Below, piece after piece: positions 1-50,214 of a DNA stretch of 64,000 nt (within the stretch, counting starts at the first letter, position 1; the number at the start of each line of letters is the position of its first letter). Below the pieces are notes generated by a model. It was not told the origin of the DNA. It did no database searches and saw only the letters and a list, made by a program, of their open reading frames with translations. The translations under genes and the position numbers were made by a program. Source of the stretch: Styela clava (taxonomy: Eukaryota). The DNA is taken from the NCBI RefSeq assembly GCF_964204865.1, contig NC_135256.1, positions 11,346,001 through 11,410,000 of the forward strand, given 5' to 3'.

Positions 1-501
1 GTATATGGACACCGTATGATATATGTTCAGGCTAATGTAACTCTCTCTTTTGTCCACACAGTTTTCAGGAATTTTTAGCATGATTTTGTCAAAAAATGAG
101 TAGGTGGCTTTATTCTTGTGGAATTTGTATAGTTACTTAATCAGATATAACAATATTGACACTAATTAGTTTTGAAAACTTTAGCTTGCAATATATTGGT
201 CCATAGACTATGTGAAATCATTGTTTTATATGTATGTGCGGAGGGGAGTTCATGAAATAAATTTTGAAAATCATCCTATGGCCTTTGTTAATGCATAAGA
301 ATCTACTCCTTGATAGTAGGCTATGTGTTTTTTTTCCAAGTGTTTGGTTTTTAAGAACATTTGTTAATCAAGATTGTTTGGTCATTATTTTATCTTATAT
401 TCTGTCATCACCGATTGATTTTTCATCTGTTGGCTGCCGTTTTTTTTTAATGATTCTACTTATATAAAATCAGTCAAAATTAGCTTTAGAAATAGTAAAA
501 A

Positions 502-1407
502 ATGAGTGCTTTGCGCCTAAGATGCAAGTCTGAACATGGGACACAAGTTCTTAACAATCTTACATCATCTTCAACTCTTCTTGATCTGATGGAAGCTATC
601 AAGAAGATATGTGATATAGAGATTAACGCACAGAAGATTCTCTCTGGTTTCCCTCCAAAATCAATGAAATTGGAAGACAAAACATTGACTTTGGGATCTT
701 TATCTATCAAATCTGGAGATACATTTACGGTGGTAAATGGGAATAAAGCAAAAGACACATCGTCCAATAATCCGGAAGCAGACAGGTCCGATAAACCACA
801 GCCTGGTGTAAGGAGAAAAGAAGTACCTGCGGATAACTCGTGTCTATTTTATAGTGTTTTTTATGTACTCGAAGGTTTTCTAGAATACGAAACGGCAAAA
901 AAACTAAGAGCAAAAATAGCCGAGCAAGTCACCAGTGATCCAGAGAAATATTCAGAAGCAGTTCTTGGGAACACCCAAATTGAATATAGTGCTTGGATCC
1001 AAAGTGATACATCATGGGGAGGTGCAATTGAGCTTGCAATACTTTCGGAAATATTTAAGGTCGAAATTGCAGCGGTCGATATAAAATCACTTAGGTTGGA
1101 CATATATGGCCAAGATAAAAGTTACAGCAGTCGAGCGTATTTGATATATGACGGAATTCATTATGATCCATTATATTTTGATTCGTGTAATAAACAACTG
1201 CCACTGCAAACTATATTTTCATGTGAGGACCATGCAATGTTGACAAAAGTGATGGAGCTCGCTGAAATTGCACACAAAGCAAGACAATTCACTGATACTG
1301 GTAATTTTACTCTGATATGTGTTACTTGCCAGAAAAAATTGACCGGTCAAAAGGAAGCACAAGAACATGCAAAACAAACTGGACATGGTAACTTTTCAGA
1401 GTGTTGA
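502..1407 (+). CDS. YOD1: Ubiquitin thioesterase OTU1/YOD1, intronless, 301 aa
   Basis: N-terminal UBX-like domain (ILSGFPPK), OTU catalytic motifs VPADNSCLF, WGGAIEL and IYDGIHYD, and C-terminal C2H2 zinc finger (CVTC...HAKQTGH). Confidence 0.95.
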   Translation: MSALRLRCKSEHGTQVLNNLTSSSTLLDLMEAIKKICDIEINAQKILSGFPPKSMKLEDKTLTLGSLSIKSGDTFTVVNGNKAKDTSSNNPEADRSDKPQPGVRRKEVPADNSCLFYSVFYVLEGFLEYETAKKLRAKIAEQVTSDPEKYSEAVLGNTQIEYSAWIQSDTSWGGAIELAILSEIFKVEIAAVDIKSLRLDIYGQDKSYSSRAYLIYDGIHYDPLYFDSCNKQLPLQTIFSCEDHAMLTKVMELAEIAHKARQFTDTGNFTLICVTCQKKLTGQKEAQEHAKQTGHGNFSEC

Positions 1408-14698: not shown

Positions 14699-15715
14699 TG
14701 TTACTTTATGAAATCCAATATCATCATTATAACAAAAGTTTATCATAAAACCTTTTGAGTGAAAAAATATGGTATTAGAGATTGAAGTTGATACAGACTT
14801 CGATACTTGACTCAATGAAAAGTTAGTTTCTTCCTGACAGAAAAACATTTGAATGAATGTAATTTTTTCCTCAGTGGCCTGGCCAAGTTATGTCCAATTA
14901 AAAACCGATATAAAAAATGAGCAATGAAGCATGGTATGCTATGCAAGTATTTTAATTCGAGTTGTTCCGACACAATATTGTAAAAAATCATATCAATGCA
15001 TCATGGGAGAACAGCATTAAACACTATTCGCCCCGAGGCAAAAAGACACAAAATATAGAATATATATAATAGTTGACAAGAAACATGCAATGGTTTCAGT
15101 CGACAGTATATTGTTGTTTTTCATTATGTGGTCTTCAAAAAAATTCAAATTAATATAAGATGACTAAAATTATAAACCTACAAAACCAATTTGTATACAA
15201 ATTTCAAATTGTTTATAGTTTTCAGTTGCTAGCTAGATGTACTAAGTATATATACCAAATTTCTCAAGCATATAATAGTCTCGCAGCAAAATTTTTTAAA
15301 TTGGATTTAATCCAAACCAATTGATAAATATAACTGATATTGTGGCATCAAAAACTATTTGTAAGGTGCTGGAAACCCTCAAATATATGAAACTAAATCA
15401 CATTTATATTATCCTCATTCTACACAAAAAATCCTGATGTAAGAAAAAGATAGTAGCAAGGCTGTGTTTTATCTGAAAGTGTCTCATTGCTCAATGTATA
15501 CATCTCCCAACTTCAGCTATCTCTTTTCAAAAGACTGAGAATGCCAATATCTTGATTGCTTAATCATGAATCAATATTTAGTCATTTAAAAAAGACTTGC
15601 CTGAACAAAAAAACAGAATGTACCCAAAAAATACACGAGTAGAAATAGAAAGATTAAAAGTGTAAAAAATTGATATTTTCATTTTATACCATATAGAAGG
15701 AATATATCCTGCGTA

Positions 15716-16361: not shown

Positions 16362-17399
16362 TATATGGATATCATCCTTCAAAAATGTTTTTTGAAAGGA
16401 TTTATTTTATTTTATAAGCTGGTGATTTTAAGATTATGCGTGTTCATAATATTATAATATAGGAATAGATGTGAAAATGCCAATATCGGTTATCATTATG
16501 GCATTTCAGGTTTCAAGTTCACCCAGAAAAAATTATACATTCGATTGTGTAGCTTTTTTTTTAAATTACCAGTATCCTGAAATTGAAAATATTTGTTGTT
16601 GAAATAGATATGAAATCAATGTTTAGTTTGAGATATTCGCTTAATCTATTTGAGTTGAAGTAGAATGACCTCTGCATCAAGATAGCAGAAGCCACAAAAC
16701 AATTTAACTTCGAATCTCATCAATACAGGTGAATTACTGTTTTTTGAATCCAATTAAATTAACAATTTGATTGAATTTTATATCTCTCTCTTAGTACATG
16801 TAGTTCAGAAATATGTAACTGTCGATAATAGACTTATAGACATGGTTTACTGCCACTGGACAACCATGGGTAATGGTCAGCTAGTATAAATATTATGCAT
16901 GTAAGCCATCAAATATTTCAATCCATATTATATGTTAGGTTTGTTCTATATACAGATATAACGTTACTTATATGAAAAACGTAACGAATACATAGCTAGA
17001 AAAATGTAAGATATTCAGAAAATTGCATTTGATTACCATCTTCAGATCTTACTCTATCATACCTAATCAATCGAAATAAAACAGATGGTTATAATTAGGC
17101 TGTTGCATAAGTCTGTAAGTGATATGCCAGTACCGGTACAGCACTAAGACCCATACAGTCATGCAGTCCTAACACAGTCCATCAGTACCGGTATTACTAT
17201 ATTATGTTGAATCTCCCAGCTCTAGGCTACATACAGACATAGAAAATAAATATATCATAGAGTCTAAGAGTAAAATGTAGCATCTTACTACATAAGCTCC
17301 ATGTGATTTACTTCCATCCAAAATCGAAACGAAGACAACCCAGCTTAAACTCAAGACGCGATACCAGTATTATCTCTTTTTCGAGCCTCCGTTAGATCA

Positions 17400-17830
17400 G
17401 CCGACAGTTTCACAAAATAAAAACTGTGACACTTCATTACGCAAGACAAAAGTAGTCTATTCAGAATACAAAAACTGACTAGAGTCAATATGAACCAATG
17501 GAAAACCTTTTTTACATGCGGCACAAAAGTAAATAAAAAACAATCTCGTTTTACAAATTTAAGCCGACAGCAAGCAGCCCTTCAAAAATATTCCGACTGG
17601 TACAACAACATGATTGTGGTGGGAGCCGTGCGCAAAAGATTGCAACCCCCGCCATACCATGTTTCCATTGGTTGATTTTGGTAGCAAAGCATTATTTCTA
17701 TTGGCCACTGGTGCGGAAACGTAACTCAGCCGTGAAAAAGAAAAAAGCGTCCCTCGCAAAAGACCGTCGCGACATAAAAACAGAATGGGCGGTTTGAAAG
17801 GATTGGGAAACCCTGAAGTGTAGACGTCGC
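17400..17830. promoter_or_regulatory. Putative promoter region of SAP130 (possibly bidirectional)
   Basis: Locally CpG-richer, ATTGG/CCAAT boxes (~17667, ~17700, ~17802), upstream of minus-strand donor-like sites at ~17287 and ~17035. Confidence 0.45.
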
Positions 17831-18397
17831 TATTTAGCGATGTTTTCGACTAGAGATTGTAATTGAAGTGCAATGGCATCGTAAATTGATGTCCTAGATT
17901 TGTATTAGGAGCGTAACTTAGTCATTTAGTATCGGGAATAGTCAGTTAAAGTGATGTATATATTGGAATTCGTTTGGTATTCTCAGTCGTCGATCCTCGA
18001 TACGGCCGAGCGATTTCGTTTTGAGGGTATGCGCGGGTTGCAGTATGTTTCGTCTGTTCTGATCTCAGATGTTTTTATTATTTTCTTTGCCGTCGCAATA
18101 TATCGTTAATACCGCGATTGATTTTACAAATAAATAATATTAATTAGACATTATATTTCTGTATTTAAGTTTAACCTATAACTTTATGATGCCATAAAAA
18201 CATCATTGGAAAAGCTGAAAAGGGACCTGTATTCAGATAATAATAAAATGGGAATTGTAAAAATAGGTAACTTATGTGGAAAGGTTACAGTTTCATCTGA
18301 ATCTTTCATAATGTTTGTGTATTCTACATATGCTGTTACATTTTGATGCAAATAAACAAAATTCATGTTCATGTGATTTTTATATGATTCTCATGAA

Positions 18398-19471
18398 TAG
18401 GGATGTAGCCATGTAGGTTTAAGAATTTCGAAGCGATTCGAATCAACATCAATTCGAAGCAATTTGAGAAAAAACAGCTTGATTCTATTTGAAAAAATAT
18501 TAATTTAGATAACACGAGGCGATTGCAAGACGCCGCAGTGTTGTCTTGTTGAACAATAACATTCATTTTCTCTACGCTTACAGCGTTCCCAAGTCTTAAC
18601 ACTCCGGGGGTTGTTATATTTCATATGGGTCGCCGCCTCAGAGGAACCAATGGTTTCGTTAAATTGTTTTTAGACTATTCAAAATGTCAGGAAGTTAAAC
18701 GAATATGTTATTATATGAACAAGTATTTAAATTACCTAAGTTATATAATGTCATCATATTAACAACAATATTTGCAATAAAACATAGGTCTGCGATGCTT
18801 CCCTCGTTATCATTTGCTTTCTTTAAAATCACGGCGCAAGCAATATTAACGCATATTTCACTGACGTTTATCATTTGAATGAATTTTAGAAGAAACCATC
18901 TCTATACATCCTATATTGTTTGCGAACATAAATTACTGTAATAAGTAAATATAACTGAGTGTAACTCTATATAGAAATAATGGGGCTCCCGAAGTATGCG
19001 AACCAAGATGGCGGACATCGGAATGTAATATGTGTACCAGGTTAGAGTTAGGCCATAATTTTAGGTATAAATACTACGGGAGGCTCTTGGCTAGTATTCG
19101 AACTGATAATAGGACTAGAATAAGGAAAATTGGAAAAAAATTATCGCCTAACCCTAACCTGTTACCCATGTTACGTTCCGATGTCCGCCATCTTGGTTCG
19201 CATACTTCGGGAGCACCGAAATAATACATATCCTCTAATATATTATGTAGTTCAAGCATCAATTTAATGTTTTCTTCTACTAACTTCACTCATTCCTCAA
19301 GTTCATTATTGTTATTTAATCACCCTTTATGCTATAGTTCTTTTAAATCCAAGGAGAGTTAACGATAATATGATGTTATACTAAATAGAATCAGATTCAA
19401 AAATATTCGAATCGGAACATTTCGATTCGGAATTCGCTTCAAAAATAAAATATTCGAAACTTACATCCCTA
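18398..19471. mobile_element. hAT (Ac-like TIR) non-autonomous element containing a nested MITE
   Basis: TIR TAGGGATGTA/TACATCCCTA; 8-bp TSD CTCATGAA (18390-18397) / CTTATGAA (19472-19479); subterminal TTCGAA/ATTCG repeats at both ends. Confidence 0.8.
18982..19217. mobile_element. Palindromic MITE family A, copy 1 (GG termini, 8-bp TSD; Merlin-like)
   Basis: ~80-bp inverted arms GG(G/T)GCTCCCGAAGTATGCGAACCAAGATGGCGGACATCGGAA...GGTTAG(A/G)GTTAGGC; perfect TSD GAAATAAT (18974-18981, 19218-19225). Confidence 0.93.
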
Positions 19472-19839
19472 CTTATGAACTAACTCCTTCAACGCATAAA
19501 CATGTACATATTTTCTATCAAAATATTATCCTTTTTTCATCGCTGATGCTATATGTGATTGCCAGACTGTATTTCATGGCTTTTTTTCACGAGAAAGCAA
19601 ACGTGCAATCACAGATTCCCGGCGTGCAACTTCTATTGAAACCGCATGAAAACCGAGTTTCTTAGCGTGCAACTGACAGAATTAACTTGTTTAAAATAAA
19701 CAAGTGTAAAATTATTTAAACGGAACATCCCAACTGTGGCTTTGACGCTTGGGTTTCGGTGTGTTTGGGAAATTGTAAAAGCTTTGACATGAGGCGATTG
19801 CGAGAATAAAATAATATGCAAAGTTAATAACAATTCCGA

Positions 19840-19856
19840 GGTGGAAGTGACGTAAA
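19840..19856 (+). promoter_or_regulatory. ETS-CRE composite motif, candidate GPS2 promoter element
   Basis: GGAAGTGACGTAA about 570 bp upstream of the GPS2 ATG, followed by a possible donor (AG|GTTAAA ~19938) and an acceptor TTAACAG at ~20398. Confidence 0.4.
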
Positions 19857-20419
19857 AATGTTAAATAAAGATTAGGATGTGGGGGCTTTAGACTTCTTAA
19901 CTAAGATTAAAGCTTTATACTTAACTAAGGAATCGTAGGTTAAAATTTCTGGTTCAAATTCCATGCTAACCACCCATGGTGTGATAAAATGAGTATGCCA
20001 TGCACGGAAAGATTCCATTTTTTTCTAAAATAGCGACTTACATATCAGTGGCTGCTATGGAAAAGTCTTGTTTGGAGCGAAAGGCATAAATATGTGGTAT
20101 AAAAAAATTAGATATACTGTTACCTTACACAAACTAAGTTTGCCAACCTCCTTATTCGTGCTTTTCTAACATTATTATCTGACCAGGATGACTGAGATTT
20201 TCTAAAAAGTTACTTATTATCTGACTGTTTTTTAAACTTGAATTAGAAATATCAAATCTGTTAAAATTACGCCTAAAAGAAATACGATTCGCGAAGTTGC
20301 TCTTTCAATCACGTTGAGTTGAACATTCTATCGCGTTAAGTTGGTTCGTTTATGTGAACAAAAACAAGTTTTTCATTAAATTTTAATTTTATTAACAGGT
20401 TAATATTTGTAAACCAATA

Positions 20420-21475
20420 ATGCCCTCTTTGGTTGAAAGAGAGGAGATGTCTGAGCCTATGAAGGAAGCCCTTAGGCGGCATGTTGTTCGAGAGAGAGAA
20501 AAACGAATGCGGGAAGAAAAGGAGGCTGAGAAAGACTTTGAACGGCGTGCTAAAATAGAAGAAGAAAGGAGAAGGAAAGAAGAGGAAGATAGCGTCACAT
20601 TGGAACAAATAAAAGATCAACTGTCAAGTTTGCACAAAAAACATGAGACTTTGAAAGACGAGAAACACCAGCTTTTTTGTCAATTGAAGAAAGTTCTTCA
20701 AGAGGAAGAAAGAAAAAAGCAAAAAATAAAAGAACAAACCGAAATGGTTGCATCCAGTCATGGCCATTATTCACATTCTTTATCCAACATGAGCAATTAC
20801 CAAATGATGCAAGGAGGACATTACCAACACCACCAGGCAATGCCATATCTATCATTACCTGGTCGTCAATCGTCCCCTCGTATTCATCCTAGTTTGAGAC
20901 ATTCAATGAATCCGCAGACTTCCCCAGCCCCTCACCAAGGTGTCAAGAGACCACATAGTCCCGCATCACCCCAACCAAGCCCTATACAAATGTATCAGAG
21001 AGCGAGTATGGCTGCGTCTGGCCACCTGCCGACAGCGCCTCAGCACTCAAAATATGATCACGCTTTTAGTGCTCACCCTTCAAGTCACTTTTCCTTATCA
21101 GGCCTGACTAATCCCCCAACAACACAACATGGTAGCATTCATGGAACACCATCACGTCATATAAGCGTTTTACATGGCACTCCACCAACCGCTCGATCAA
21201 ATGATCAGAGGTCACCATACAATTCTTTATCATTGGATAAACAGCTTGAAATGGCCAGTCAAAAATCGGGTTTCGGAGATGATTCTGGTTCACTATCTTC
21301 TCCCGGTAGACGATCTATGATACGAATGCTGCCGCAAGGACCACTGATACCCCAACAAGTCACTCAGGGTTCCAGATCAAGATCGGGATCACCGGGTAGA
21401 TATCAAGGACATCCTGAAAAACCTCATAGCCCATTTCATGTTGCAAATCCATTGTCTGGTTCAAGATATTATTGA
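20420..21475 (+). CDS. GPS2: G protein pathway suppressor 2 (NCoR/SMRT-HDAC3 subunit), single coding exon, 351 aa
   Basis: N-terminus MPSLVEREEMSEPMKEALRRHVVREREKR...EKHQLFCQLKKVLQEEERKK matches the GPS2 coiled coil; P/Q/H/S-rich tail ending RYY. Confidence 0.92.
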   Translation: MPSLVEREEMSEPMKEALRRHVVREREKRMREEKEAEKDFERRAKIEEERRRKEEEDSVTLEQIKDQLSSLHKKHETLKDEKHQLFCQLKKVLQEEERKKQKIKEQTEMVASSHGHYSHSLSNMSNYQMMQGGHYQHHQAMPYLSLPGRQSSPRIHPSLRHSMNPQTSPAPHQGVKRPHSPASPQPSPIQMYQRASMAASGHLPTAPQHSKYDHAFSAHPSSHFSLSGLTNPPTTQHGSIHGTPSRHISVLHGTPPTARSNDQRSPYNSLSLDKQLEMASQKSGFGDDSGSLSSPGRRSMIRMLPQGPLIPQQVTQGSRSRSGSPGRYQGHPEKPHSPFHVANPLSGSRYY

Positions 21476-22636
21476 TAATGCAACCATAGACAACTAGTTA
21501 AACTGTGATTGTTCATGATTTTCAATTGTGGCATTTTTAGCTAATTCATTGTACTTGTATTTCGTCTCATCTGTATGAAGACTAAAAACTCCAAAATGTC
21601 GAGACTTCTGGTAGACTGGTCATATGAATGTTATCCATTTTCAATATTTCTTTATACAAAAAAAAAGCTATTTCTTGCTTCTAAATTCATAAAGTTTCAA
21701 ATTATATAATCTTGACTGTGGGTTCTCAAGAAATTAGACAGATTTTAAGACGATTGAATACAGATGGTCAGAGTTATTGTTTTTCTATTAGTTTGCAATA
21801 TTTGTTTTATGTCAAATTTTTCATTTTTGTCAAGTTTCTTTAGGATTTTAATTCAAAATAAATCTGTTCAGGTAATTTGAAGTCAAAATGTATTTTGCAT
21901 CAGAGTTATAGAATGATAAGCTATTCTGATATTTTATATCATAAGTTTAGATTTCATTTTTCGATTGTCTCATATGTCACAGTGAGTCATCATCAGTTTG
22001 TGAATTAAAATTCTTGATCACTGTGTGTACTAACTTTGTCACACTCTTGTGTGATGTCACACAAATGTATCATTTATCTAAATTTGGAGAGTTATGTCTG
22101 ACAGCCCTCAGACTTACTCTAAGGAAACTTTATTGTCATGTTATATCTGTCTGTGACATCTTTCGTTTTGAGTTTTGTTATTCATTGGAATAATTCTACC
22201 GAAACCTGGTCTAATCAATCTTTTATGAAATATCACATTTGGCTTGTATTGCATGTCCCACATAAATTGTAATAATCAATATTCCAATATTATCACTGGT
22301 AACTGTTGGTAAACTGCCTGCCTGAGGAAGTCTGATTTGGTCGAATAAATGTTGTAAAATGTTATGCAGGAATTTTGGCCAGTCATTATTGGAATGTATT
22401 CATAATAGCTATTTTGGTGTTTCATGGACTCTTGCTAAAGTCATGTTCTTGTCCAGTTTCAGAGCTATTCTCGATCTATATTTTTCCTTGAATAACTTTC
22501 CTAATGTGTTCCGTGTTTCTTTTTTGTCTATATTACTGCGATTATTGTACTTGATATATTATACCAATAAAAAAGCCGCTTCTTAAAGTTTTCAGCATAA
22601 ATAGCTCTGTTGCTTAATTAGTTGTCTGTTACACCC

Positions 22637-25600
22637 ATGATGTCTCTTGGTTTGTCGGATTTTACAGACATTGAATCTGAAGAAACTTTTTCTACAAATG
22701 GATTCGGAAACAATATTCTTACAGTTTTTGAACAGATTCGAAGAGAGGTAGGTGAACAAATTGTTGTGCATTATACATATGATAATAGTTCGATATATTG
22801 TTTAATTATGTAATTGAAATACTGACATGCATTTTTACAGGTAATAATACATGGATCGTTTATAGATTAATAAAATAATACAGTTTAGTATTAATAAAAT
22901 AGTGAATACGTCATACATTGAGTTTCGATTTACTTTTGAATATCTGGTTTCACTGTAGTTGCGCAATTTTATCTTTTTGTCAGTGCTCAAAATTTGGCCA
23001 GCAATTCACTTACAATGACCTATGCGTTTTTGATATTAACTAGTTCATAACATTGTCCTTGTTGGCTAACTATAGGAATTATCACATACAAATTTATTAA
23101 CTAACTTATGAATACTTACTGAGTAAACGTCATACCCATATTTTGCCCATGAATAAAAGAATACAAAGTATTAACCTGAGTAGAATAAAATTAAAAATTT
23201 GTAATTATGTCAACATATATACTGTTCTTGTTTCAAAATTTGTTCGAATTATTATTCTATCCGTTCATTTCAATACAGGGAAAGATGTGTGATGTTGTTC
23301 TGAAAGTGGAAGGTGGTCAATTTTCTGCTCATCGTATTGTTTTAGCTGCTTCGATACCTTATTTCAATAGCATGTTTACAACGGATATGGTGGAGGCTAA
23401 TATGCCTGTCATTCCAATGCAGGTAAGGTTTAGTCATCTATATAATTCCATTATTGCCCTGAAGGCTTCCTGTTGGCATCATTTTTTTAATTTATGGGAA
23501 CATGTTTATGGATGGTTGTATCAGTGTATAAGCATAATGGTATCACCTTATGTATAAGACATCCGTTTCCAAAGGGTATGCTGCGGTGCATTTGCTAAGT
23601 GCACCCTGAGAATTAACGGAATTGTGTTAAACACAACTAATATATATTTTAATCATTGAAAATGTTTTGTTTCCTATATTTAATGCTGTGAATATGAATC
23701 GGTAAATTCATTTAACCTTTCTATGTCATTTGCTTTCTGTTACGTAGTGTATGTAACAATAGAGGTATTATAACTAGATGCATTTTGTGAGCTGCAGTTT
23801 ATTTATCTCCTGAACTGAGTTCAAAGCAACATGTGTGATATTTATAGTACTTTAATAGAAAATCAGGCATATAGGAGGAGGAAGAGTTGGACCTTTTGCC
23901 CTTATTTCTTAGGCCTACATGTTTACAAACCTAAAAAGGCATAAAGTATACATTAACGATCACAAAATTCAATTCAAATGCAGCAATGACTTTTTCCTTG
24001 ACAATTTGGCGCCGAACAAACAAAGTCTGAATCACTCCTGTAATAGTCTACATCCCCCCCCCCCCCCCCCTTCCCCGTCTGTGATTATTTGAGTTTGAAT
24101 ATAGGGTGTAAAATTTTAGGTTTAATTAATCCAAACTATTTTATTTTGCTTTTACTTCAGTATTTCATTCAGTGATAGTTGTCAATCCATATTGCATGAA
24201 TGATTTTTTTTATTATAAGTATCGTTTTTCAGGGAATAGATGTTGCTGCACTCGAGGCAATCATCAACTATGCATACAGTGGTCGAATTACACTTGATAT
24301 TACCAATGTACAAAGTATATTAGTTGGTGCAAATTTTCTTCAATTACAAAATGTAAAAGACTATTGCTGTGAATTCATTAAGGTTAGTATCGGCAGTCAT
24401 TATATGGTTTTACTGTTTTATAGTTTCAGTGGGTATTATTTTGTGATACCATGGTATTAGGTGCCATAATCACCTGTATATTGTGTGAGATGCGATTTTT
24501 CTCCCTGATTCCTGACAATGGTAAAGCATCATAAATGAACGTAATGATAAAGATTGCCTTTTTTTAACGATTGACTCTGAATGGTGGAATGATTACAAAA
24601 CGACATTCGAAATTTGATTAAAAAATATTACTCTGAACTTATATAGCAAGTGGCGAACACAGACTGTGTAAAATATTCGTGTCACAGCTCATTTGTTTAC
24701 ACTGTTTATGTCATTCTTTCTATGCGATACTGTAAGCCCATATCAGTTTAATTCAGCTATTTATAACATCTGCTAATCTTTGGTTGAGGTATCACTTTAT
24801 TTATAAAAAATCTTATCTTATTTGAAAATAAAGTGCCAATTTTTTGCAGTCTTCTTGGCAAAATCTCATCTTCATAGTTTAACAAGAAAAAATTGGACGA
24901 CATAATTTAATGTCAAATTTACCTCAGGTTGTGGACAGTAGAAAGGCCTGTTTTACTATTCTAAATATATTATGAAGAAATAGTTGTTTGGAAATAAGTT
25001 GGAAATGTGTAATTTGCAATTCTATATAATATTATTTAAATTGGAACATAATCATTAAATTGGCTTGTTCGAAATCAGGAATAGATAATGTGTTGGCTGT
25101 ATTCCTAATTTCATTAGCATTTGTCTCATTCTTCTACTGAATACATTTTAAAATGATTTAAAAAAATTAAATGTTTAAGTTATCGAATCCAAATTCTGGT
25201 AATTTTAAATAAATGCAGTTATATTTTCATCTCCTTATATCACATATCTGAATTTTGTTCCTGGTAGACGGTAGTACAATGTGGAAATTGAGTAGCGTTT
25301 GTGCATGTAATATTGTTTGATTTATATGTGGCATTATGTATCAAGTTAGTTTTCACATTTATACTGTTATCATATTTCATGGTTTCGAATTTCTACTTTA
25401 ACACAGGAAGTTAGTTAGTTAGCATTCTAGCTAGGGGTGTGCAACCTTTATTACAGGAGGGCCAGACACAAATAACTGGGTGAAGCCGCGGGTCGCACCT
25501 TTGTCTAAGATAACCTTTCTAGTAGTTGCGGCACAAAATATTGTTTCTTTGTGTTATTAATCTTACGGCATTATTTGGGGTCCTTGCAGAAATAGTGAGT

Positions 25601-28600
25601 TACAAGGCTAAATTTCTGGAGAAAACTGATATTTAAATCATTTATTACTGTCACATTGGCTGTGATGTGAACGAATTTAGTGAGAAACACGTTTTTATAA
25701 CATTGTGTATTTTGCAACAGAATTTTGCTTGCTAGTTTTGCTAATATAACAGTGGCAGGTACTGGTATATACTTTGTGATGCAAAAGGATTAAAATTGCT
25801 CGCACATACCAGATTAACTAAACTAAAAACATTTTTCGTGGGCACACTATTTAAAATGGCACTACTCCGCGGGCCACTCAATTTTTTCTAGTGTGCCGCA
25901 TTTGGCCCGCGGGTCGCAGTTTGCACATCCCTTGTTCAAAGTATAAAGCCTAAGTATATTCCATTAACTTATCACCTTCTTGTTAAAATGCAGAAACGAT
26001 TACATCCGACAAATTGCCTGGGTATACGACACTTTGCCGAATTGCTAATGTGTGGATCATTGGTAGAAAAGGCAAATAGTTTTATCGAACAAAGATTTTT
26101 AGAAGTCACGAAATCACAAGAATATCTCCAACTTTCTCTTGATGAAGTTACAGACTTATTAGCAAGAAATGAGATAAATGTTTCTTCAGAAGAACAGGTA
26201 TTTATTTATTTCTGTTTTAATCACATCAGTCTCAAAATAGTACAGTATTTAGTAGTATTAGGCTAATTGGGATACACACTGATATAAGATGATCCAAACT
26301 TGACCGTATTCTCATTTATTCGATATTGAAAATAATAAAATATTTAAATAACCCAGTTTTTAATTAAAAAAAAAAAACGTTATTAAATTTTAAAACGTGG
26401 GATTACTGTATTGGACATTGTTCTGGTGTTATAATGTTGGCATGTTATGACAATAATACTTTAAAACCTGAGCTATGCGTCATAGACTTGCAAGTGAAGC
26501 TTGTGAGATCGAACTATTTCCTTCAATATGCACCTTTATATCTAACAATATTAATGATAAAACGAGAAAATTGTAATTATTGTTCCATATCTTGATCGAT
26601 TCCTATACCGATTGGTTCAATATTATCCTTTTTATATTTCATCGCTTACATTTAATCTTTTGAACCTATTTTGATATTGAACGAACAACATGATGTACAC
26701 AAAAGATAGTAAACCATGACTGAATCATTAAAAGATGTTTTTTGATGACTGTTTACTTTACTGAATGGTTAACTTGTTAATAATATAATATCTCAATACA
26801 TGCAACAGTGCATCATACCTTTCAATAATTATTTTCATACTCATACTCGTAATCACGTATTTCCAGGTATTTCATGCTGCTACAGTTTGGATTAAGGAAG
26901 ATCCAACAGAGCGAACAAAACTGATGCAAGAACTGCTCCAATACATCAGATTACCTCTTCTACGACCACAATTCCTAACAGATGTAGTGCAGATGCATCA
27001 TACTGTGAAAACCTGTCTGAAATGTAGAGATCTCGTTGACAAAGTAATTATCATTCCTTCATCTATGTTCAAACAGACTTCTTTTGTTTATATTTTTAGG
27101 TTTTGATTTCATGCGAGGTAAATAAATATTGTATGCTTTTTGGTTAAACTTCAGGCCAAACAGTATTTTACACGACTGGTATAAACAAAATAAATGTTTT
27201 AAATTATAAAAAAATATAATTTTGGCATAGTCAAAGAAATCAGTGGAACATTAGCTTGTTCCTCAGATGCTATGACAAATAGGATTGCTAAACTTTATTT
27301 AAGCAGTTTATTATGTTCCAAAAGAAATTGCTAGTATTTTACTGGATGACAATATTGTAGCAGAAGAGAGCTGTATTTAAACTAAAAAATTATATCCAGG
27401 CAAAAGATTATCATTTGATGCCAGAACGTAGATATGAGTTTCCTCCAAATATGGTTCGACCAAGATGTTGTACCGATGTACATACCATGATTTATGCAGT
27501 TGGGGGTTTAACATCTAGTGGTGAAGCACTCAACATTGTGGAAAAATATGATCCAATTGTTGGCAGGTATGGAAATTGTTTTACTTATTTCAATTACGTT
27601 AAGTCTTTTTGGATACGACTAAGCTTTACATTCCAGATCCCTGTTCTGTTGCTTGCCTATATAAAGAAGCGAGCGGCCAACAAATGTTGTTATTCGTTTA
27701 AGTTTATATATTGTTATTTGTTTTTATATCAATATCGAAATAATTTTTAACTTGTGTGATGGGAATTACATTGTCATTAGATAATTTGTTAGCATTTGTT
27801 GACACAGTACACCTGATATTTTCCAGTCAAAATCCAAAATAATCTTCGGAAATGGTTGTACTGCTAGTCCCGAATTCATACATGTTCACGATATATAATA
27901 TGCTTACCATATATATGAAACATAAAACAGAGACAGTGTAGATATAACAAACCCTGGTTCGATTCTGGGGCAAAGTAATAGTCAGCTCGTATCAAATCAT
28001 TGGAAAACGTGCAATTTCCTTTCGCATTTTGAATAATTTATCGGCAGTACAGCTAACGTTAGATGTCAAGTTGACGTATCGGACAGATAACATATAGGCC
28101 GTAACAATATAGTAGTTCTCTCTCATACTGAACTATAGAAGTGAAACGCAAATCAGTGATATTGATGTATTGATATAAAATAGAAAAAAATATTTATGAC
28201 TTCATGACCGGGACATTTAAGTCTACTGGAAGGACGTCGTGACAGCTTCTCAAAATCGGAACTATGTAGCATTTTAAGACATGTTGTTCATATCTAATTT
28301 CTATGATATTTAGATGGGTAACAGTATCTTCAATGAAAACATGCAGAAGTAGAGTCGGGGTTGCTGTGCTTGCCGGTCAGTTGTATGCAGTAGGAGGATA
28401 TGATGGATCTCAAAGACTAAAGACTGTTGAAATGTTCTCTCCTGATACAAATGAATGGTGTGATGTCAAACCTATGAATATGAAAGTTAGTGTTAACTAA
28501 CTAACTAATGTCTAACTAGTAAATACTCATAACCAAAGTACTCCAATCACCTATCTACAGAACTTGAGTATACGGTCACATCACTTTCACAGTTTGTTGG

Positions 28601-31600
28601 TCATGATCAGACACCTATACCATATGACAGCCATTTCCAATTGTTGAGTAACAATAGAGGTAGACACCACTTTCTGCAATTTGCTAGCTGCAGTTTATTT
28701 ATCTGCGGAACCGAGTTTAGCGAACTGTAGTGATTTTTTTAGAATTCTGAGTGAAAATCAGGTACAGATGAGGGAGAAGAGTCGACTTTCTGCTTTCACC
28801 CCTTAGGCCTACACAATAAAAACTTTAAAAGACATAAAGTACACATTACCAATTTTGAAATTGATTTTTATTTAATAGTAGCACTTTTTTTTCATGAAGT
28901 GTTCGCTGAGTCTCCCTGATAATTTTGTGCCACACGAACAAAAAGTCGCCCTATGACATCACTGATCACGCTTGGCCATCTGGGAAAACATTAGTATATA
29001 ATATAAATTTAGTATTTTAGAGTGTAATTTTTTTGTGCAATATATAATGATTGTCTCATGCTCATTGTTTGTCTTCGATGGTATTCGATTTTGGATATGC
29101 CATCGACCCATATCTAATAGATGGTGTTCATTTTTGTGTGACTTCTAAGTTTTGTTTTGTTGTCTGAAATCAATTTTCTTAATAATCTCCTTTTCAGCGA
29201 AGCGCATTAGGGTGTGTTGCACTCGATGGAGAAATATTTGTGTGTGGTGGATTTGATGGCACTTCATCTCAGAGCTCATGTGAAGTATACAAACCCCATA
29301 CTCAAACCTGGGAATTAATCAAGTGAGATTAAAATTAGATAATTTTACTTAACATTATTGGATATGAAAAAAGTTTGATAGATTTTCAATGATTATTTTC
29401 AATCAAAAAGCCATTACATCTTTTTGGTCGAGCTCTCTAGACGAATATACATTGCTGTCAAAAAAGGCAATTAAAATTTTATTGCCTTCTACATGTGTGA
29501 GGCAGCATTTTAAGCTTTTACCAATATGATGACAAAATACAGGGTGAGACTTGCTGTGGAGACTGACCTATGAGTTTGCATGTCACAAATTGCTCCGAAA
29601 ATCGATAAATGGTGCAGTGAAAAGCAACCTCATCCATCACATTAATGTCGTTTGTGTTGTTGTGTCGAAAATGAAAAATTGTACTTTCTCATTGGTTAAG
29701 CACAGAAATTGATACTGCATGGACTGGGGGTCCGTCAAAACTAGGATCCACAAATGGGGGTCCTCGGACAAAAAAGTTTGGGAAACCCTGATCTAATGCG
29801 TACATAATTCCTCATCGTCAAATTTAGAAGAAGTTTATGTTGAAGCAGAGTAAGCATCGAACATAGAAAAAAAATTTGAGTTCAACATTATATGTGCTTT
29901 AATGATATTACTTACCTCCATTGTGTTTTGTAATTAAGACCTATGCAAAAGGGACGCAGTGCTGCTGCAGTTGGAGCATTTGAAAGAAATGTGTATGTTC
30001 TTGGGGGTCACGATGGACTACAAATTTTCAATTCTGTGGAATATTATGTCATTGAGAAAAATGAATGGACAATGGGGGTTCCGATGCTCACTAAGCGATG
30101 TCGTCATGGTGTAGCAACATTGCGAGGAATATTATTTGTTTTTGGGGGATATGACGGAAAAAAGTTTCTAGATTCAGTGGAGGTAAAATAGATTGTTATA
30201 AAATATTGTACCATATGTGTTATGTAGCAATGGTGTTATAAAATACTGTATACAGTATACTTTTTTGCGGATCGATTATAATTTTTCCTACTCGAAATTT
30301 AACGGTTTCAATATCATCTAAATGCATTGTAGCAAAATATAATGCGAGATTTTCCACACATGGATCTTTACTCTGTAGCCATTCTTCTCCATGCTCAAAT
30401 TTACCACCTTTTATGCGAATAGCCTTTAAAGTCAGTGTTGAAATAGTGTTTTTAATTCTTTTTACTTGCGAATCCCCAATTACATTAACAATGTGCTTTT
30501 CTTAAATGCTCTTTTCGACCAGATCACCTTCATTGCTTAGTGTCATTAATGATGCAATCGCATCCAATTTCAGTTGATCTAATTTTATGTGCAATTGCAG
30601 GTTTCTATGCTCGCTTGTTCCTCCAATAGTTGTTTTATCAATGAGATTGATTCGTACTTGTTTACATCAGCATCCTCTTTGTCATCTACCATCTTATAAT
30701 TTTGAATCCTTTAATAACAGCGAATAATTTTGCCTCGCTCACTAATGTCAGCTACCTTCCACATTTCGCACTCTGCTAGACTTATACACCCTGATAATTC
30801 AGAACTATGGTCTCATCCAAATTTGCAAGTTGGGATTGTAAGCAAATATAATAATAGTCTGTATATGACATATGTGCCAATAGGTACTGTTCTGTAGTCA
30901 TAGTCTAATATCAATTTCAAAATTGCCCATAAAGCTCCAACTTATAGTACTCTATGGTTAAATGAATACTATAATTATTGAATTCCAGCTGTTTGATCCT
31001 GTCACCTGTCAATGGTGTTTTGTGGCTCCAATGAGCATGCGGAGAAGTCGTGTTGGTGTTTCAACCAGTGGAGGAAAAATATATGCATTGGGTGGATATG
31101 ATGGGTAAGTGTAAAAAGCATTGTATGAAACGAATTTCTATTCGATTCAGGTGACAGTTTTTCCTTTTATATAACATTTCACTCAATTATAATTGTTTCT
31201 TGTCATTTAGTCAGCCTCTCTGAAAACAGTCTTAAGTTCAGACTTATTCAGTTTATTGGGTACAATTATTGGTACTCCCGAAGTATGTGAACCAAGATGG
31301 CAGACACCGGAACTTAATATGTGTACCAGGTTAGGGCTGGGCCATAATTTTAGATACAAATACTACAGGAGTCACTTGGCTAGTCCCCAAACTCATAATA
31401 TAACTAAAATTGGAATAAAATTATGGCCTAACCCTAACCTGGTACACATACTACGTTCCAGTGTCCGTCATCTTGGTTCACATACTTCTGGAGTACCCCA
31501 ATGTTTGCTCGATTCTGCAAACCTGACTTAACTCAATGTAACCATTGCTCTCATCAATCTTTTGAAGCAATCCAACTATCCAAGCATTATACTCGATTTA

Positions 31601-31764
31601 TTACATGGGCGTGTAGAACATTGTGGTATTTTGTTTTTAGATGTTCAAATTTATCATCAGTTGAGGTGTACGATCCTGAAACAAATACATGGAAACTTGG
31701 TGATCGCATGTGGGCACATGAAGGAGGTGTGGGAGTTGGTGCAATCGCTCTTGAACCTGTCTAG
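22637..31764 (+). CDS. KLHL18: Kelch-like protein 18 (BTB-BACK-6xKelch), 11 exons, ~577 aa
   Basis: Exons 22637-22747, 23279-23422, 24233-24382, 25994-26197, 26867-27043, 27400-27566, 28314-28485, 29198-29322, 29939-30182, 30989-31104, 31641-31764 join in frame with GT-AG. Motifs [53 protein letters not shown]. Confidence 0.92.
23757..24035 (+). repeat. Dispersed repeat B, copy 1 (old transposon-derived)
   Basis: Colinear shared blocks with 28652-28960: CAATAGAGGTA, AGCTGCAGTTTATTTATCT, GAAAATCAGG, CTTAGGCCTACA, CATAAAGTA.ACATTA. Confidence 0.75.
24054..24070. repeat. C17 homopolymer
   Basis: Run of 17 C in a KLHL18 intron. Confidence 0.9.
25432..25933. mobile_element. hAT (Charlie-like) MITE
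   Basis: Ends TAGGGGTGTGCAA / TTGCACATCCCTT with subterminal GCGGG(C/T)CGCA repeats; TSD degenerate. Confidence 0.75.
28652..28960 (+). repeat. Dispersed repeat B, copy 2
   Basis: Colinear similarity to 23757-24035. Confidence 0.75.
29724..29790. mobile_element. hAT MITE right-end remnant
   Basis: GGGGGTCC repeats followed by AAAAAGTTTGGGAAACCCTG. Confidence 0.5.
31271..31498. mobile_element. Palindromic MITE family A, copy 2 (diverged), in last intron of KLHL18
   Basis: GGTACTCCCGAAGTATGTGAACCAAGATGGC...GTTAGGG...CCTAACCCTAACC...CATCTTGGTTCACATACTTCTGGAGTACC; degenerate TSD CAATTATT/CAATGTTT. Confidence 0.88.
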
Positions 31765-33400: not shown

Positions 33401-33749
33401 TTTCTAGCCTTTTCATGGAGCTTTAGGGCGTACCGGTACCGGTGGGTCAGAACTTAGGCTGTTCCATCTGCTTAATTTTGTTGGCTGTTGAACTTTCACT
33501 TGTAAAATATGATTAGTCTGCTAGTTTCTAAGCTCAAACAAAGATTTAATTATTCTCTGTGGTCTACCGGCTCACCGCTACCGGACAGCCGGTACTTAGG
33601 TTAAAAAAAAGACTCGACAATATCAGATTATCGCAGTGTCTGAAAGTAACTTGTGGCTGCGTCAAGCTTGTCAAACCACCGTATAGTTTGTCCTAATACA
33701 GTAATATCTGAATATAGGTCTGTGGATTGTTGAATATCTGGCTGAAAGG

Positions 33750-36700
33750 ATCGAATTTACTGTTCTCACAATTTATGTAACATAACCAATTTTCATTGCT
33801 ATCCCACATGTCATTCTGATCATGACATGTATTCGATTGATGCTCAAGTAACCAATAGTACAGAAGAAAAGGGAAATGGCTTCTGGAAAAATAATGTCTC
33901 TGTTTATAACAGCAAACCATTCATTGAAGACCTTCAAAATAAGTGGAAAAATTGGTGTACGTTAAAGATATTATTCGAAACAAAACAGCATTGGTGGTGC
34001 GAAATAAAAAATAAGATAAAAGATCTGATTATCAAACACTCTGTCAAACTTGCCAGACAAGCAAGAGATGAATATGATAAAGAAATGAAACAACTAGATG
34101 ATTTAAAAGTGAAATTGGACAGAGGAGAAAAAGTTTTAACCCAGTTTAACAAACTAAAGAAAGAGATAATTAAAAAACAAAGACAAAGAAATGGTAAAAT
34201 TAGAATTCTAAACTTGGCCCACCACTATGATACATATGAAAAATGTAATAAGTCATTCTTTAAGAATCTGAAAAAAAAGCAAAAAGAATGTTATATCCAC
34301 AAATTGAAGGACAAAGAAGGTTTCATACAAGAAAATTTGACAGAAAAAATGTACCTGGTAAAACAATATTATCAAAATCTGTTTAAAAAACAAAATAATG
34401 ATATGGAGATTCAAAAATACTTTATTGAAGCTATTCCAGCTTCGAGAAAAATACAAGAAGAAGACGCAGAAACAATGCAGAGACAAATTGTCATAAACGA
34501 GGTTCAGGAAACCATTACATCTTTCAAAGAAGGTAAAACTCCAGGACCTGATGGTATAAGTATAGAGTTTTATAAGAAATGCTGGACTGTCATAAAAAAT
34601 GATTTTTTTGAAGTATTGGAGGAAATTTATGAAGAAGGACTCATCGCAAAAGACTTCAAAATTGGATATACAACTTTAATCCATAAAAAAGGAGAACTGG
34701 ATCAGGTTAAAAATTACAGACCAATAGCTTTACTAAACACAGATTATAAAATTTTGACCAAAATATTAACAAATAGATTGAAATGTATTTTACCTAATAT
34801 GCTAGATACCCACCAAACAGCTATACCAGGGAGGCGTATTTCTGATGCACTCATATTGTTAAGAGACATATGTATACAGGAACAAAACAAAACCGGAGAA
34901 TCTTCCATAATATCATTGGATTTTAACAAAGCCTTCGATAGTGTAGATTTGGATTACCTCTTTAACGTTCTTCGTAAAATCGGATTCAAAAATAAATTCA
35001 TGAGTGTAATCCGGACATTATATATAAATTCAGAAACTCGAGTGTTACTAAATGGTTATCTTAGTGAAGCAGTGAAACTCGAAAGAGGAATTCGACAAGG
35101 AGATCCGTTAAGTCTTTATATGTTCACATTAGCTATTGAACCACTCTTAATTAGAATAAATACCTGTAATTCTATCAATGGAATATTGATACCACAAAAT
35201 AAAGAAATAAAACATATCAGCTATGCGGATGATATTACCTTGACAATTCGAAACAAGACATCAATATATTCAGCACTGGATTTGATAAACAAATTTCAAC
35301 TAGCAACGGGAATGAGGTTAAATATGGAAAAGACGAAACTTTTGAAAGTAGGAACATGGAATAATCCCAGTTTATTTTCTAAGTTGTCTATCGTTCAGAC
35401 TTTAAATATACTTGGAATAATTTTTTCCAATTCTGACACATCGGATGAAAATTGGCATTTTTGTTTAAATAATGCCAGAACTGTAATAGACGAATTGATG
35501 GATATTCCTCTATCTTTGGATGGAAAATGTCTTCTAATTAAACTGAAAATATTACCCTTGTTTTTATATTGTGCGAAAGTGTTTCCTATTCCCCTGCATA
35601 TCGGTAAACAAATCAATAAAGATGTGGAGTTTTTCATATTCAATGGAAGAAGTGTTTTAAAAATAGAAACTTTGTGCAAATGCAAATCATTGGCTGGATA
35701 TGATATGATTAACATTCCTATTTTTACTATGAGCATGTATGTCATGACAGCATTTGAGTATTATTGTAAAAGAACTAATATTGCTATTGATCAATGCAGA
35801 CAATCTGTTTTCAATTTTGTTGAATACAACATAGGTCAACAGCTTAGTTTATTTTTCAAATTGCCTACTAATAATAGTGTATCCCATGTTTTTTTCCCTC
35901 AGAAATACTATGGAACTATAATCAGCTTTCTGAGACAGTACAACATCACTGAAACTGATTTAATTCAAGGAAAGCATAGACATTTATATAATAAAATTGT
36001 AAATAATTCGAAGGGTGGGGATAGAATTGTTTTTTTGAGAGATGGTAATTTAATAGGGGCTTGTTCAAATATACATTCTAAAATTTTGGCCAATAATGTA
36101 AGGACTTTCAATTATAAATTAATGTGGGACATTTTATCAATCAAGGTTAAGCCAAGAATAAAACATATTTCTGGGGATGATATTTGTGTGTTATGTAAAC
36201 AAGATTCTGAATTTGTGTCTCATTTGTTTTGGAATTGTGTTTTTACTCAGAATGTCTATGATTATATCTTTTCTGTGGCATTAAAAATGAGTAACTGTGT
36301 GATAAAAAATAATTATAAAACTTGCATTTTATTGGACTTAAATGACCAATGTTATATAAATTTATCCATTATACAACGTAATGCTATTATATTGTTATTT
36401 TGTACAGCAAGATATAAAATTTGGTTGGAGCGTAACGCTGTAATATTTCAAAATCATAACCCAAGCATAAATAATGTTATTATGAAAATTAGGAACTCAC
36501 TTCTAATGAGAAGAAATATAGAAAAAGTGAGAAAGGAATTTTGTTATATAAAAGAACTTGCCATGATTTGTAATAACTTGTGAATAATTATAAAATTATG
36601 TTTTTTCATGCTAAATAATTAAAAATAAACTATGTAATTTGTATTACGAAATCAACAAATGAATTATTGGAACTCCCTGGATTATATGGAATATTATATC

Positions 36701-47500: not shown

Positions 47501-50214
47501 CAAACTCAAGTAGAATCTGTGATACAAGCTGGTCTCATACCACAAGTTATAATGCATTTAAACAAGGTACCTTCACAATGAAGTTTGTACAATGTAGAGT
47601 ACCGTAATTCTCATCCAACTGTACTCGTTTGAATTTTTGAGTAACAAGTTTCAAACCTATTTTAACTCATATGTGACCTTACCTTTGTTGCTGTTTAACA
47701 AAGGGAGTGAAATTTTCAATGTCCAATAATTTTTCAAAAAAAAACGTAAAAATATTTGGCACAATGAGAAAGATGTATCATTTTTATTTAAAATTTTGGT
47801 TCATCTTACTCTGAATGTATTAGAAATTTTAGAAAAGTGAATTTTCAATGTTTTACAAAATTGAAGTATAAAAACTAAGATATAATCATATTCTGTTTTC
47901 ACACAGAGTGATTTCCAAACACAAAAGGAAGCAGCTTGGGCCATCAGCAACCTAACTATATCTGGAAACAAAGATCAAGTGGCACATGTTGTTCGCCAAG
48001 GTGTCATTCCACCATTTTGTAACCTGCTGACTGCTAAGGATAATCAGGTGGGTGTCGAGTGTTGAACTTATCAAGTGCTGCAAAGTAGGTGACTAAAATA
48101 GCAAATTTAGAAAATTTCTTGTTGTTTTTTTCCCTTTGAAACTTGCACTGAGGTACATGGTCAATCAGGTAGACAAATTTCTCAAGTATTTCCCCATCTG
48201 CATGTCTCATGAATTTCTAAATTATAACATTTTAGGGCCCTATCGAAATATTGTAGGCAGGCAGATCAAAACAAGTTCACAATAAGCCATTCCTCAATTT
48301 CTTCAATTTTTTATATTGGCCATTTAACCCTTTCCGTGCGGTGGGCACGTATACGTACCAACGACAAAAGTCGCTAGATTGCGGCGGGTACGTTGATGTA
48401 CTCCACTGTTTTATTTAGCAATCGGTCGCAAACTGTTGGTCTAGTTTTTCCGGGTTTTAGTTTATTGATAAGAAGTCTTCTTCGAGATCAGCATAAGCGA
48501 AGGTAAATCTCGCTTTCGTTTACGACGGGAATTTTATTTGCGGCGGAACGAGGGAGTGTTTTTGAAATTTATGCAAATTTCAGTGTTTTTTGGGTGGTAA
48601 TAGAAGACATATTATCCCTTCCATCTACCAAAGTATTTTGAGTTAGATCACGAAATTGCTACAACAATATTATGCTATTGTTTGCCAATCACGAAGCAGT
48701 AACAGTAAAGGATTTAGCGAATATTTCTATTTTTTATCACGGTTTGAAGTTTCAACTCCCAAGAAAAAAAATGCCTTTTTTCTATCCGGTTTGTGACTCA
48801 GACTACCCCTTTTGAAAAAACTTTTTTTTTAATCGCCAATTGCAAGCTCTTTAAATAAGCTTTCCAACGAGCCGTCAGTGGGCAGCAGAGGATCATTAGT
48901 TTTTCGTTAGTCGATCGATTAGTTGTGGGGGTACAAATGCATAAAATCGGCGTAGCAAATACGATTATTTAATAAAAAATAAAAATCGCATGGAAAGGGT
49001 TAAGCATTCTTTCTTTTCCATGTGCCTTTCTCTTATTGGTTCTAGTGTTATAGCAATGTAAATTATGTAATAATCTCAAAATATTGTAGGAAGGCAAATC
49101 AAAACCAGGTTACAATAGGCTAATCCTTGGTTATTCCAAAATTCACTATTATTTTGCTCCGGTTATCAGAATGTGACACCATTTCTTAGTCTTAATCTTT
49201 TCCTATTGCTTGTTATATTTGTAATCTCAAAGTTATGTAGGCCAATAACATGATACAGTATTTGTTTATCCAACAGATTATTATTGTATGGTGAAGTAGT
49301 TCGCCAAAGAAAAGCTTGTTTGACTGCAGTCTTCTCCCACTATGCCGTTTCGCATTTCAACTGCCTCAATATATTGATTTTTAAGCAATTTTCATTTATT
49401 ACTGCTAGGTCGTTCAAGTGGTCTTGGATGGAATTATCAACATATTGAAAATGGCAGGTGAAGATGACGCTGTTGCTACTCTGATCGAGGAATGTGGAGG
49501 TGAAGAAGACTAAAAATTATTATTTGTTATCTTTTTCCGTCATGATAACAAGCTTCTATATTTGTTTTATACTTTCTCAGGTTTAGACAAGATTGAGGCA
49601 CTTCAGAATCATGAGAATGGAGATATTTACAAGCTGGCGTACGAGATCATAGATCAGTTTTTTTCTGGAGACGTAAGATCGATTAATGTTATTTATTTTG
49701 AACTTATATCATCAATTTCACAACTTCTGTCTGCTTATTATATATTGGTGTGGCTACTCTTCCAAATTTTTATGCCTGTACTGTATAAATGGTGCTCCCG
49801 AAGTATGCGAACCAAGATGGCGGACATCGGAACGTAACATGCGTAACAGGTTAGGGTTAGGCGATAATTTTTTCCAATTTTCCCTATTTTAGTCCTATTA
49901 TCAGTTCAAAGACTAGCCAAGAGCCTCCCGTAGTATTTATACCTAAAATTATGGCCTAACCCTAACCTAGTACACATATTCCGATGTCCGCCATCTTGGT
50001 TCGCATACTTCGGGAGCCCCGTATAAATTTTGATTTTTGTACTCTTTATCTTGAGAATATCATCCATTTTAATTTTTGTAATTTGTTTAATTTCATTTAC
50101 TTTTGAATGTATTTTCTCGAACAGATTGAAGAAGACATTGCCCCAGATAGCACACAGGGATTCCAGTTTGACCCATCTGTTAAGCTTCCACCTGATGGAG
50201 AATTCAAGTTCTGA
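38575..50214 (+). CDS. KPNA4: Importin subunit alpha, alpha-3 clade (KPNA3/KPNA4-like), 14 exons, ~513 aa
   Basis: Exons 38575-38640, 39077-39205, 40653-40788, 42086-42214, 42674-42760, 43389-43485, 44851-44968, 45921-46052, 46523-46651, 47462-47566, 47907-48047, 49409-49499, 49581-49672, 50125-50214. IBB ([23 protein letters not shown]), [52 protein letters not shown]. Likely co-orthologous to KPNA3 and KPNA4. Confidence 0.93.
40889..41190. mobile_element. hAT-type MITE remnant
   Basis: TTTTCAAACTTTTTT start, CGACCC/GACCC subterminal motifs, ends GCCCTG. Confidence 0.5.
43680..43942. mobile_element. Tc2/pogo-like MITE
   Basis: 21-bp imperfect TIR CCGTATATCCTTGCATATAAG / CCTATATGCGAGGATATATGG, flanked by TA; internal CTTATACGC repeats. 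Confidence 0.8.
45138..45423. mobile_element. hAT (Ac-like TIR) MITE
   Basis: TAGGG(G)ATGGG / CCCATCCCTA termini, perfect 8-bp TSD ATAGCAGG (45130-45137, 45424-45431), GGA(C/T)TCG subterminal repeats. Confidence 0.9.
48328..48999. mobile_element. piggyBac-type non-autonomous element
   Basis: TTAA TSD on both sides (48324-48327, 49000-49003); 13-bp TIR CCCTTTCC(G/A)TGCG. Confidence 0.9.
49791..50020. mobile_element. Palindromic MITE family A, copy 3 (inverted relative to copy 1), in last intron of KPNA
   Basis: Near-identical to the reverse complement of 18982-19217; perfect TSD GTATAAAT (49783-49790, 50021-50028). Confidence 0.93.

Follow-up and report, generated by a model that had tools for sequence, protein, structure and literature searches.

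In Ciona, 1,310 candidate operons have been reported, which together hold about a fifth of the genes, so that one more pair of this kind is in itself ordinary. Among them, 1,079 of the 1,310 consist of two genes, and 60% have a first gene with a single exon; the operational definition applied is a distance of less than 100 bp between genes on the same strand (PMC2760879, in the excerpt drawn on here). In Ciona operons, the G of the acceptor AG receives the poly(A), and it has been argued for spacer-less operons generally that prior cleavage would remove the acceptor (PMC1488885, likewise in excerpt). The leader of Botryllus, Halocynthia, and Styela plicata is tabulated in the excerpted part of PMC3795323. 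As regards Styela clava, a literature search whose coverage left most subscription journals outside found no description of operons, and the genome paper of the species makes no mention of operons or trans-splicing. A further search on the GPS2/KLHL18 pair returned texts in which neither gene is named.

The pair described here lies in a window of Styela clava NC_135256.1, that is, the whole stretch of 64,000 nt analysed, from 11,346,001 to 11,410,000 of the forward strand (assembly GCF_964204865.1); positions without a contig name are counted within it. The GPS2 coding sequence (20420..21475, plus strand) is a single exon of 351 aa with a match to PF15991 (E 1.4e-33), and unspliced RNA contigs cover its single frame, so that the first gene of the pair is without an intron in its coding sequence. 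The named homologues found are all ascidian, Clavelina and Ciona among them, and a scan of metagenomes found no relatives. The KLHL18 coding region (22637..31764, plus strand) consists of 11 exons encoding 577 aa, with BTB, BACK, and Kelch domains. Its 10 GT-AG joints are seen in the RNA runs and are absent from run X10, and the spliced frame from the ATG at 22637 is identical to the 577-aa "kelch-like protein 18 [Styela clava]". It is probable that GPS2 and KLHL18 are made as one operon transcript, which is likely cut apart by a 24-nt leader spliced onto the AAG at 22588.

The evidence for this reading comes from sequencing data. Four of the 15 listed runs were used (X1, X5, X9, and X10), all as contigs. 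None of the 15 is recorded as RNA; X1, X5, and X9, which come from three studies (X5 from study P2 and X9 from study P3), are treated as RNA because they contain GT-AG joints that are absent in X10. The latter has no spliced joints, covers the introns, and is DNA-like. Contigs of this type cannot show start sites, and they drop rare forms.

The contigs of the two genes meet at one point. In X5 and X9, two of the three RNA runs and from two studies, KLHL18 contigs fit the genome from 22586 with 0 differences, and the fit is preceded by foreign 5′ letters, 42 in X5 and 3 in X9. The GPS2 3′ UTR (21476..22588, plus strand, 1.1 kb) is taken to end at the acceptor G, where an unspliced X5 contig running from 21661 to 22588 stops (one of the three RNA runs); the corresponding contig of X9 ends at 22560. 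The GPS2 3′ UTR contig thus reaches 22588 and the KLHL18 mRNA contigs begin at 22589, which places the genes on the same strand and less than 100 bp apart. Because the end of the GPS2 RNA and the start of the KLHL18 RNA coincide in the contigs (22588/22589), one operon transcript is likely. In X1, again one of the three RNA runs, a contig extends across the joint from 22141 to 22745 and then into the spliced KLHL18 exons 2-3, although it represents an assembly and not one molecule, and DNA in X1 is possible. The joint region is single-copy. Contig depth, which cannot rank parts, is lower over the distal GPS2 3′ UTR than over the GPS2 coding region, and this could reflect upstream poly(A) sites or the splitting of alleles. 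In the bin 22542-23175, the depths computed from the listed contigs are 18.0, 31.6, and 50.0, and those seen are 18, 31.6, and 50; as the listed contigs explain all the depth, the 42 letters of X5 are not adjacent genomic DNA.

A leader that may account for such foreign letters is present in the genome. The 16-nt Ciona leader followed by a donor gave 11 matches against 11 in the control and was rejected for Styela clava. The stolidobranch leader tabulated for Botryllus, Halocynthia, and Styela plicata gave 634 genome matches against 0 in the control. When followed by GTA, it gave 115 matches (control 0), most of them in a single array, which lies on the contig of the window itself. This array of SL RNA genes (contig C8, 4.23-4.60 Mb; loci L031-L043 and L046) shows a TATA box, a 24-nt leader exon, and a GT donor; its regular part has a period of 1,634 bp, and in the stretch examined the exon ends in TTAAG. 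In the irregular part of the array, the donor is followed by a sequence of a second type. A search of the SL loci against Rfam returned no match. At GPS2, contigs of all three RNA runs fit from 20397, that of X9 with 18 foreign letters in front. The region from 17826 to 20398 (plus strand) is likely the GPS2 outron, about 2.5 kb long, with the acceptor TAACAG at 20398; its 5′ limit corresponds only to the start of a contig. The foreign letters on GPS2 and KLHL18 are likely the leader, an identity which is based on their position, and 21 of the 42 in X5 go beyond what a 24-nt leader explains.

The transcript would begin well upstream of GPS2. A CpG-rich block at 17300..18100 is likely a divergent promoter shared by GPS2-KLHL18 on the plus strand and a SAP130-like gene on the minus strand. 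Its CpG observed/expected ratio (o/e) is 1.33 compared to 0.72 in the whole window, it contains 5 CCAAT/ATTGG boxes, and a low-depth RNA contig begins within it at 17826. The SAP130-like gene, which lies upstream of GPS2, is matched weakly by Pfam, at E 0.0015, which does not reach the cut-off. The two genes diverge from one CpG-rich block (14834 on the minus strand to 20398 on the plus strand), and in each of them an acceptor lies about 2.5 kb from this block, ahead of the start codon. The SAP130-like protein and GPS2 are presumably both co-repressor subunits.

The alternative that survives best, although it is unlikely, is that KLHL18 is trans-spliced but transcribed on its own, from a promoter within GPS2 (in the coding sequence or the 3′ UTR); its outron would then overlap the GPS2 3′ UTR, and GPS2 would be cleaved at its AATAAA. 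With a promoter of its own, KLHL18 would show a leader joint and a low read-through no different from those of the operon, and the canonical AATAAA 17 nt upstream of the joint agrees with it. Moreover, the mean outron length in Ciona is 438 bp, and acceptors there are in some cases overlapped by start sites (PMC4691747, in excerpt). What such a promoter does not require is that the GPS2 contig should end exactly on the acceptor G. The CpG content bears on both sides. The 500-nt bin over the joint, with 11 CpGs, reaches an o/e of 1.02, whereas the 1-kb bins at 21-23 kb give 0.64 and 0.61, compared to 1.02-1.37 upstream of GPS2 and 1.19 in a block at 52-53 kb at the start of the GLTP gene in the same window; in the GPS2 3′ UTR, the ratio is 0.43. 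This contrast weighs weakly against a separate promoter, since it is a weak hint given that Ciona has no CpG islands (PMC4691747, in excerpt).

Two further places in the window were considered as operons. Importin-alpha and GLTP, a candidate second operon, were set aside, as a high-CpG block lies between them. A single-exon gene for an OTU1/YOD1 deubiquitinase (499-1407, plus strand) is a candidate first gene of an operon.

Returning to the operon transcript, the position of the joint follows from the way in which the contigs start. Between 22500 and the KLHL18 ATG there are five AGs, ending at 22575, 22588, 22595, 22604, and 22621. A leader ending in TTAAG predicts a first fitted base at 20397 for the acceptor 20398, at 22586 for 22588, and at 22594 for 22595; indeed, only a leader that ends in AAG after a letter other than A, and that is joined at 22588, predicts a start at 22586. 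The observed starts at 20397 and 22586 therefore make the AAG at 22586..22588 (plus strand, joint 22588/22589) the most likely acceptor, and TTTTCAG (22589..22595, plus strand) becomes the opening 7 nt of the KLHL18 mRNA; both KLHL18 contigs include it in their fitted part.

Judged by its sequence, 22588 scores poorly as an acceptor. A cis-acceptor matrix trained on 10 KLHL18 sites only (7 CAG, 2 TAG, and 1 AAG) places it at the 36th percentile and 22595 at the 77th. It is nevertheless very unlikely that the pair is an operon with TTTTCAG at 22595 as its main acceptor. In its favour, this site more closely resembles the 10 cis acceptors within KLHL18, and acceptors in Ciona often occur in close pairs (PMC4691747, in excerpt); as the main acceptor, however, it predicts a fit from 22594, whereas two studies give 22586 with 0 differences, and a leader ending in CAG is ruled out by the GPS2 fit from 20397. 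Minor use is compatible with contigs that drop rare forms, and TTTTCAG is possibly a second, minor acceptor.

The preliminary description of this DNA had assigned the joint to TTTTCAG and predicted both RNA ends at 22595/22596, which is 7 nt too far downstream, as the contig starts fit 22588/22589. Its core, co-transcription resolved by a spliced leader with no spacer, is independently supported by the RNA contigs and the SL RNA gene array. The motifs were also read exactly, in letters and distances (AATAAA at 22566-22571, TTTTCAG ending 24 nt after the hexamer, and the ATG 41 nt further on), and both gene names hold, given the PF15991 match and the frame identical to kelch-like protein 18. 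As to the motif pair alone, an AATAAA with TTTYCAG or TTTTTAG within 30 nt occurs for 5 of the 222 hexamers on both strands of the 64-kb window, and the pairing is not beyond chance.

Least credible is the explanation that the foreign letters are not the leader but stem from cis-splicing of an exon further upstream or from an insertion or deletion between alleles: the 42 letters of X5 do exceed the leader length, four possible donors of the form [CGT]AAG/GT occur at 15-22.6 kb (one within the GPS2 coding sequence), and the animals are polymorphic, but X5 depth is zero in 14934-15567 and 16836-18103, its surplus of 2.0 in 20640-21273 is below the 4.2 expected from 42 letters at depth 63, the reference sequence as far as 22588 is present in X5 as well, small gaps are opened by the aligner elsewhere, and one leader end accounts for both GPS2 and KLHL18.

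Leader copies are also found within retrotransposons. The Styela clava genome contains a Ty3/gypsy family, encoding gag, protease, reverse transcriptase, RNase H, and integrase, which carries the 24-nt leader in both LTRs (L044, C1:13882500-13891800; L045, C1:14846800-14855800; and L049-L078). The LTRs measure 715-754 bp, have TG...CA ends, are 99-100% identical within an element, and are flanked by 4-bp target duplications; the family is young. The LTR ends about 160-185 bp after the complete host leader. Thirty loci were read of 148 matches to the anchor motif, and, counting related copies that are not independent events, in 20 of the 30 the leader joins 9 nt ahead of a YAG and in 6 at the YAG itself, while the remaining 4 have no leader match within 2 differences. 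Two of these four LTRs belong to one element, and in them a U/G-rich tract runs up to the same two AGs; this leader-less form may have arisen by decay of a leader. In one LTR variant, the leader is partly doubled, and one element is devoid of it. Judged from its sequence, the arrangement looks like a trans-spliced RNA that was copied into the LTR, and the pattern of joints suggests that, in Styela clava, an upstream AG can receive the leader even when a better YAG follows a few bases later, as at KLHL18. The trans-splice site does not have to be the YAG that looks better, a point of consequence for annotation made from sequence only. A literature search on leaders inside LTRs returned no matching title.

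Other dispersed leader copies were observed. At L011 and L024-L028, a repeat consists of a near-complete leader, then GT, and then a stretch which we take to be a tRNA B-box-like motif; it is possibly a SINE-like element containing the leader. Further copies, at L012, L013, and L022, have no donor and may be retrocopies of trans-spliced RNAs. At L012, the leader runs into a stretch of 7 nt with CAG at its end, after which comes ATG; this closely resembles the KLHL18 5′ end. The window itself contains a 945-aa open frame with RVT_1 and zf-RVT domains, that is, a LINE-type element (33746-36583, plus strand), and three copies of a very abundant short MITE-like element with terminal inverted repeats (18980-19222, 31273-31500, and 49793-50020), whose depth in the sequencing runs is in the hundreds of thousands.

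A mechanism for the operon can be proposed from these positions. Transcription would start near 17.8 kb, and a leader would replace the 2.5-kb outron at 20398 to give the GPS2 mRNA. A second leader would join at 22588 to give the KLHL18 mRNA, and the GPS2 3′ end would be polyadenylated at, or just before, the G of 22588. YTRAY is the consensus for branch points, and 22530-22585 holds one match only, a candidate branch point at 22550..22555 (plus strand) with its A at 22554, 34 nt before the acceptor and inside the GPS2 3′ UTR. The AATAAA (22566..22571, plus strand), which corresponds to positions −22 to −17 from the joint, lies between this candidate and the acceptor, and both it and the candidate fall within the final 40 nt of the GPS2 3′ UTR. 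The GPS2 3′ region has 4 A(A/T)TAAA hexamers, of which the upstream ones span 21857-22349.

As the GPS2 3′ UTR would contain both the branch point and the AG, the acceptor would be lost if the AATAAA directed cleavage, and each transcript would therefore tend to yield either GPS2 or KLHL18 mRNA. It is tentatively suggested, as a possibility somewhat doubtful at present, that the AATAAA acts as a functional either/or switch, at which cleavage-polyadenylation and trans-splicing compete for a single bond and so set the GPS2:KLHL18 ratio. [quoted passage not shown] More generally, an operon that keeps its AATAAA offers a simple test of cleavage versus trans-splicing as the maker of that end, a question which the excerpted part of PMC1488885 leaves open.

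The pairing itself seems to be lineage-specific. According to protein records, and assuming that these refer to the same assemblies, GPS2 and KLHL18 lie on contigs of unequal length in Ciona intestinalis (18.3/8.8 Mb) and in Clavelina (25.7/24.6 Mb), so that the pair appears unlinked in both.

Among described operons, those of Oikopleura dioica are alike in being tunicate operons resolved by one leader; they differ from the Styela pair in having spacers of 23-30 nt, a 40-nt leader, and no AATAAA in the upstream genes (PMC1488885, in excerpt). The SL1-type operons of C. elegans share with it an upstream AATAAA (3 of the 3 characterised), little or no spacer, and the use of a general leader (same excerpt), but they belong to a nematode, are a minority class there, and use a different leader, and the likeness may be convergent. 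By analogy, the GPS2-KLHL18 layout, with an AAUAAA just upstream of the likely trans-splice site and no spacer, fits the SL1 type, yet the pair is not a member of it, not being from a nematode. In that type, a transcript undergoes either 3′-end formation or trans-splicing. Were the switch true, the stolidobranch line would have assembled a chordate equivalent of the SL1-type operon.

The closest likeness is to Ciona. Its spacer-less operons have abutting same-strand genes, an upstream 3′ end at the acceptor G, and a foreign leader on the downstream gene (PMC1488885, in excerpt), and two-gene operons and single-exon first genes are also found there (PMC2760879, in excerpt). The leader differs, 16 nt in Ciona and 24 nt in the stolidobranch Styela clava. 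A further difference concerns the poly(A) signal, which the preliminary description had regarded, when beside the acceptor, as a signature of ascidian operons, which it is not: an AATAAA within 40 nt of the joint is present in the Styela pair and in 2 of 18 Ciona operons, the other 16 of the 18 being without it (PMC1488885, in excerpt). With this pair, base-level evidence for zero-spacer operons now extends to Styela, and GPS2-KLHL18 is best regarded as an ordinary Ciona-type spacer-less operon in which the poly(A) signal over the branch-point zone is atypical.
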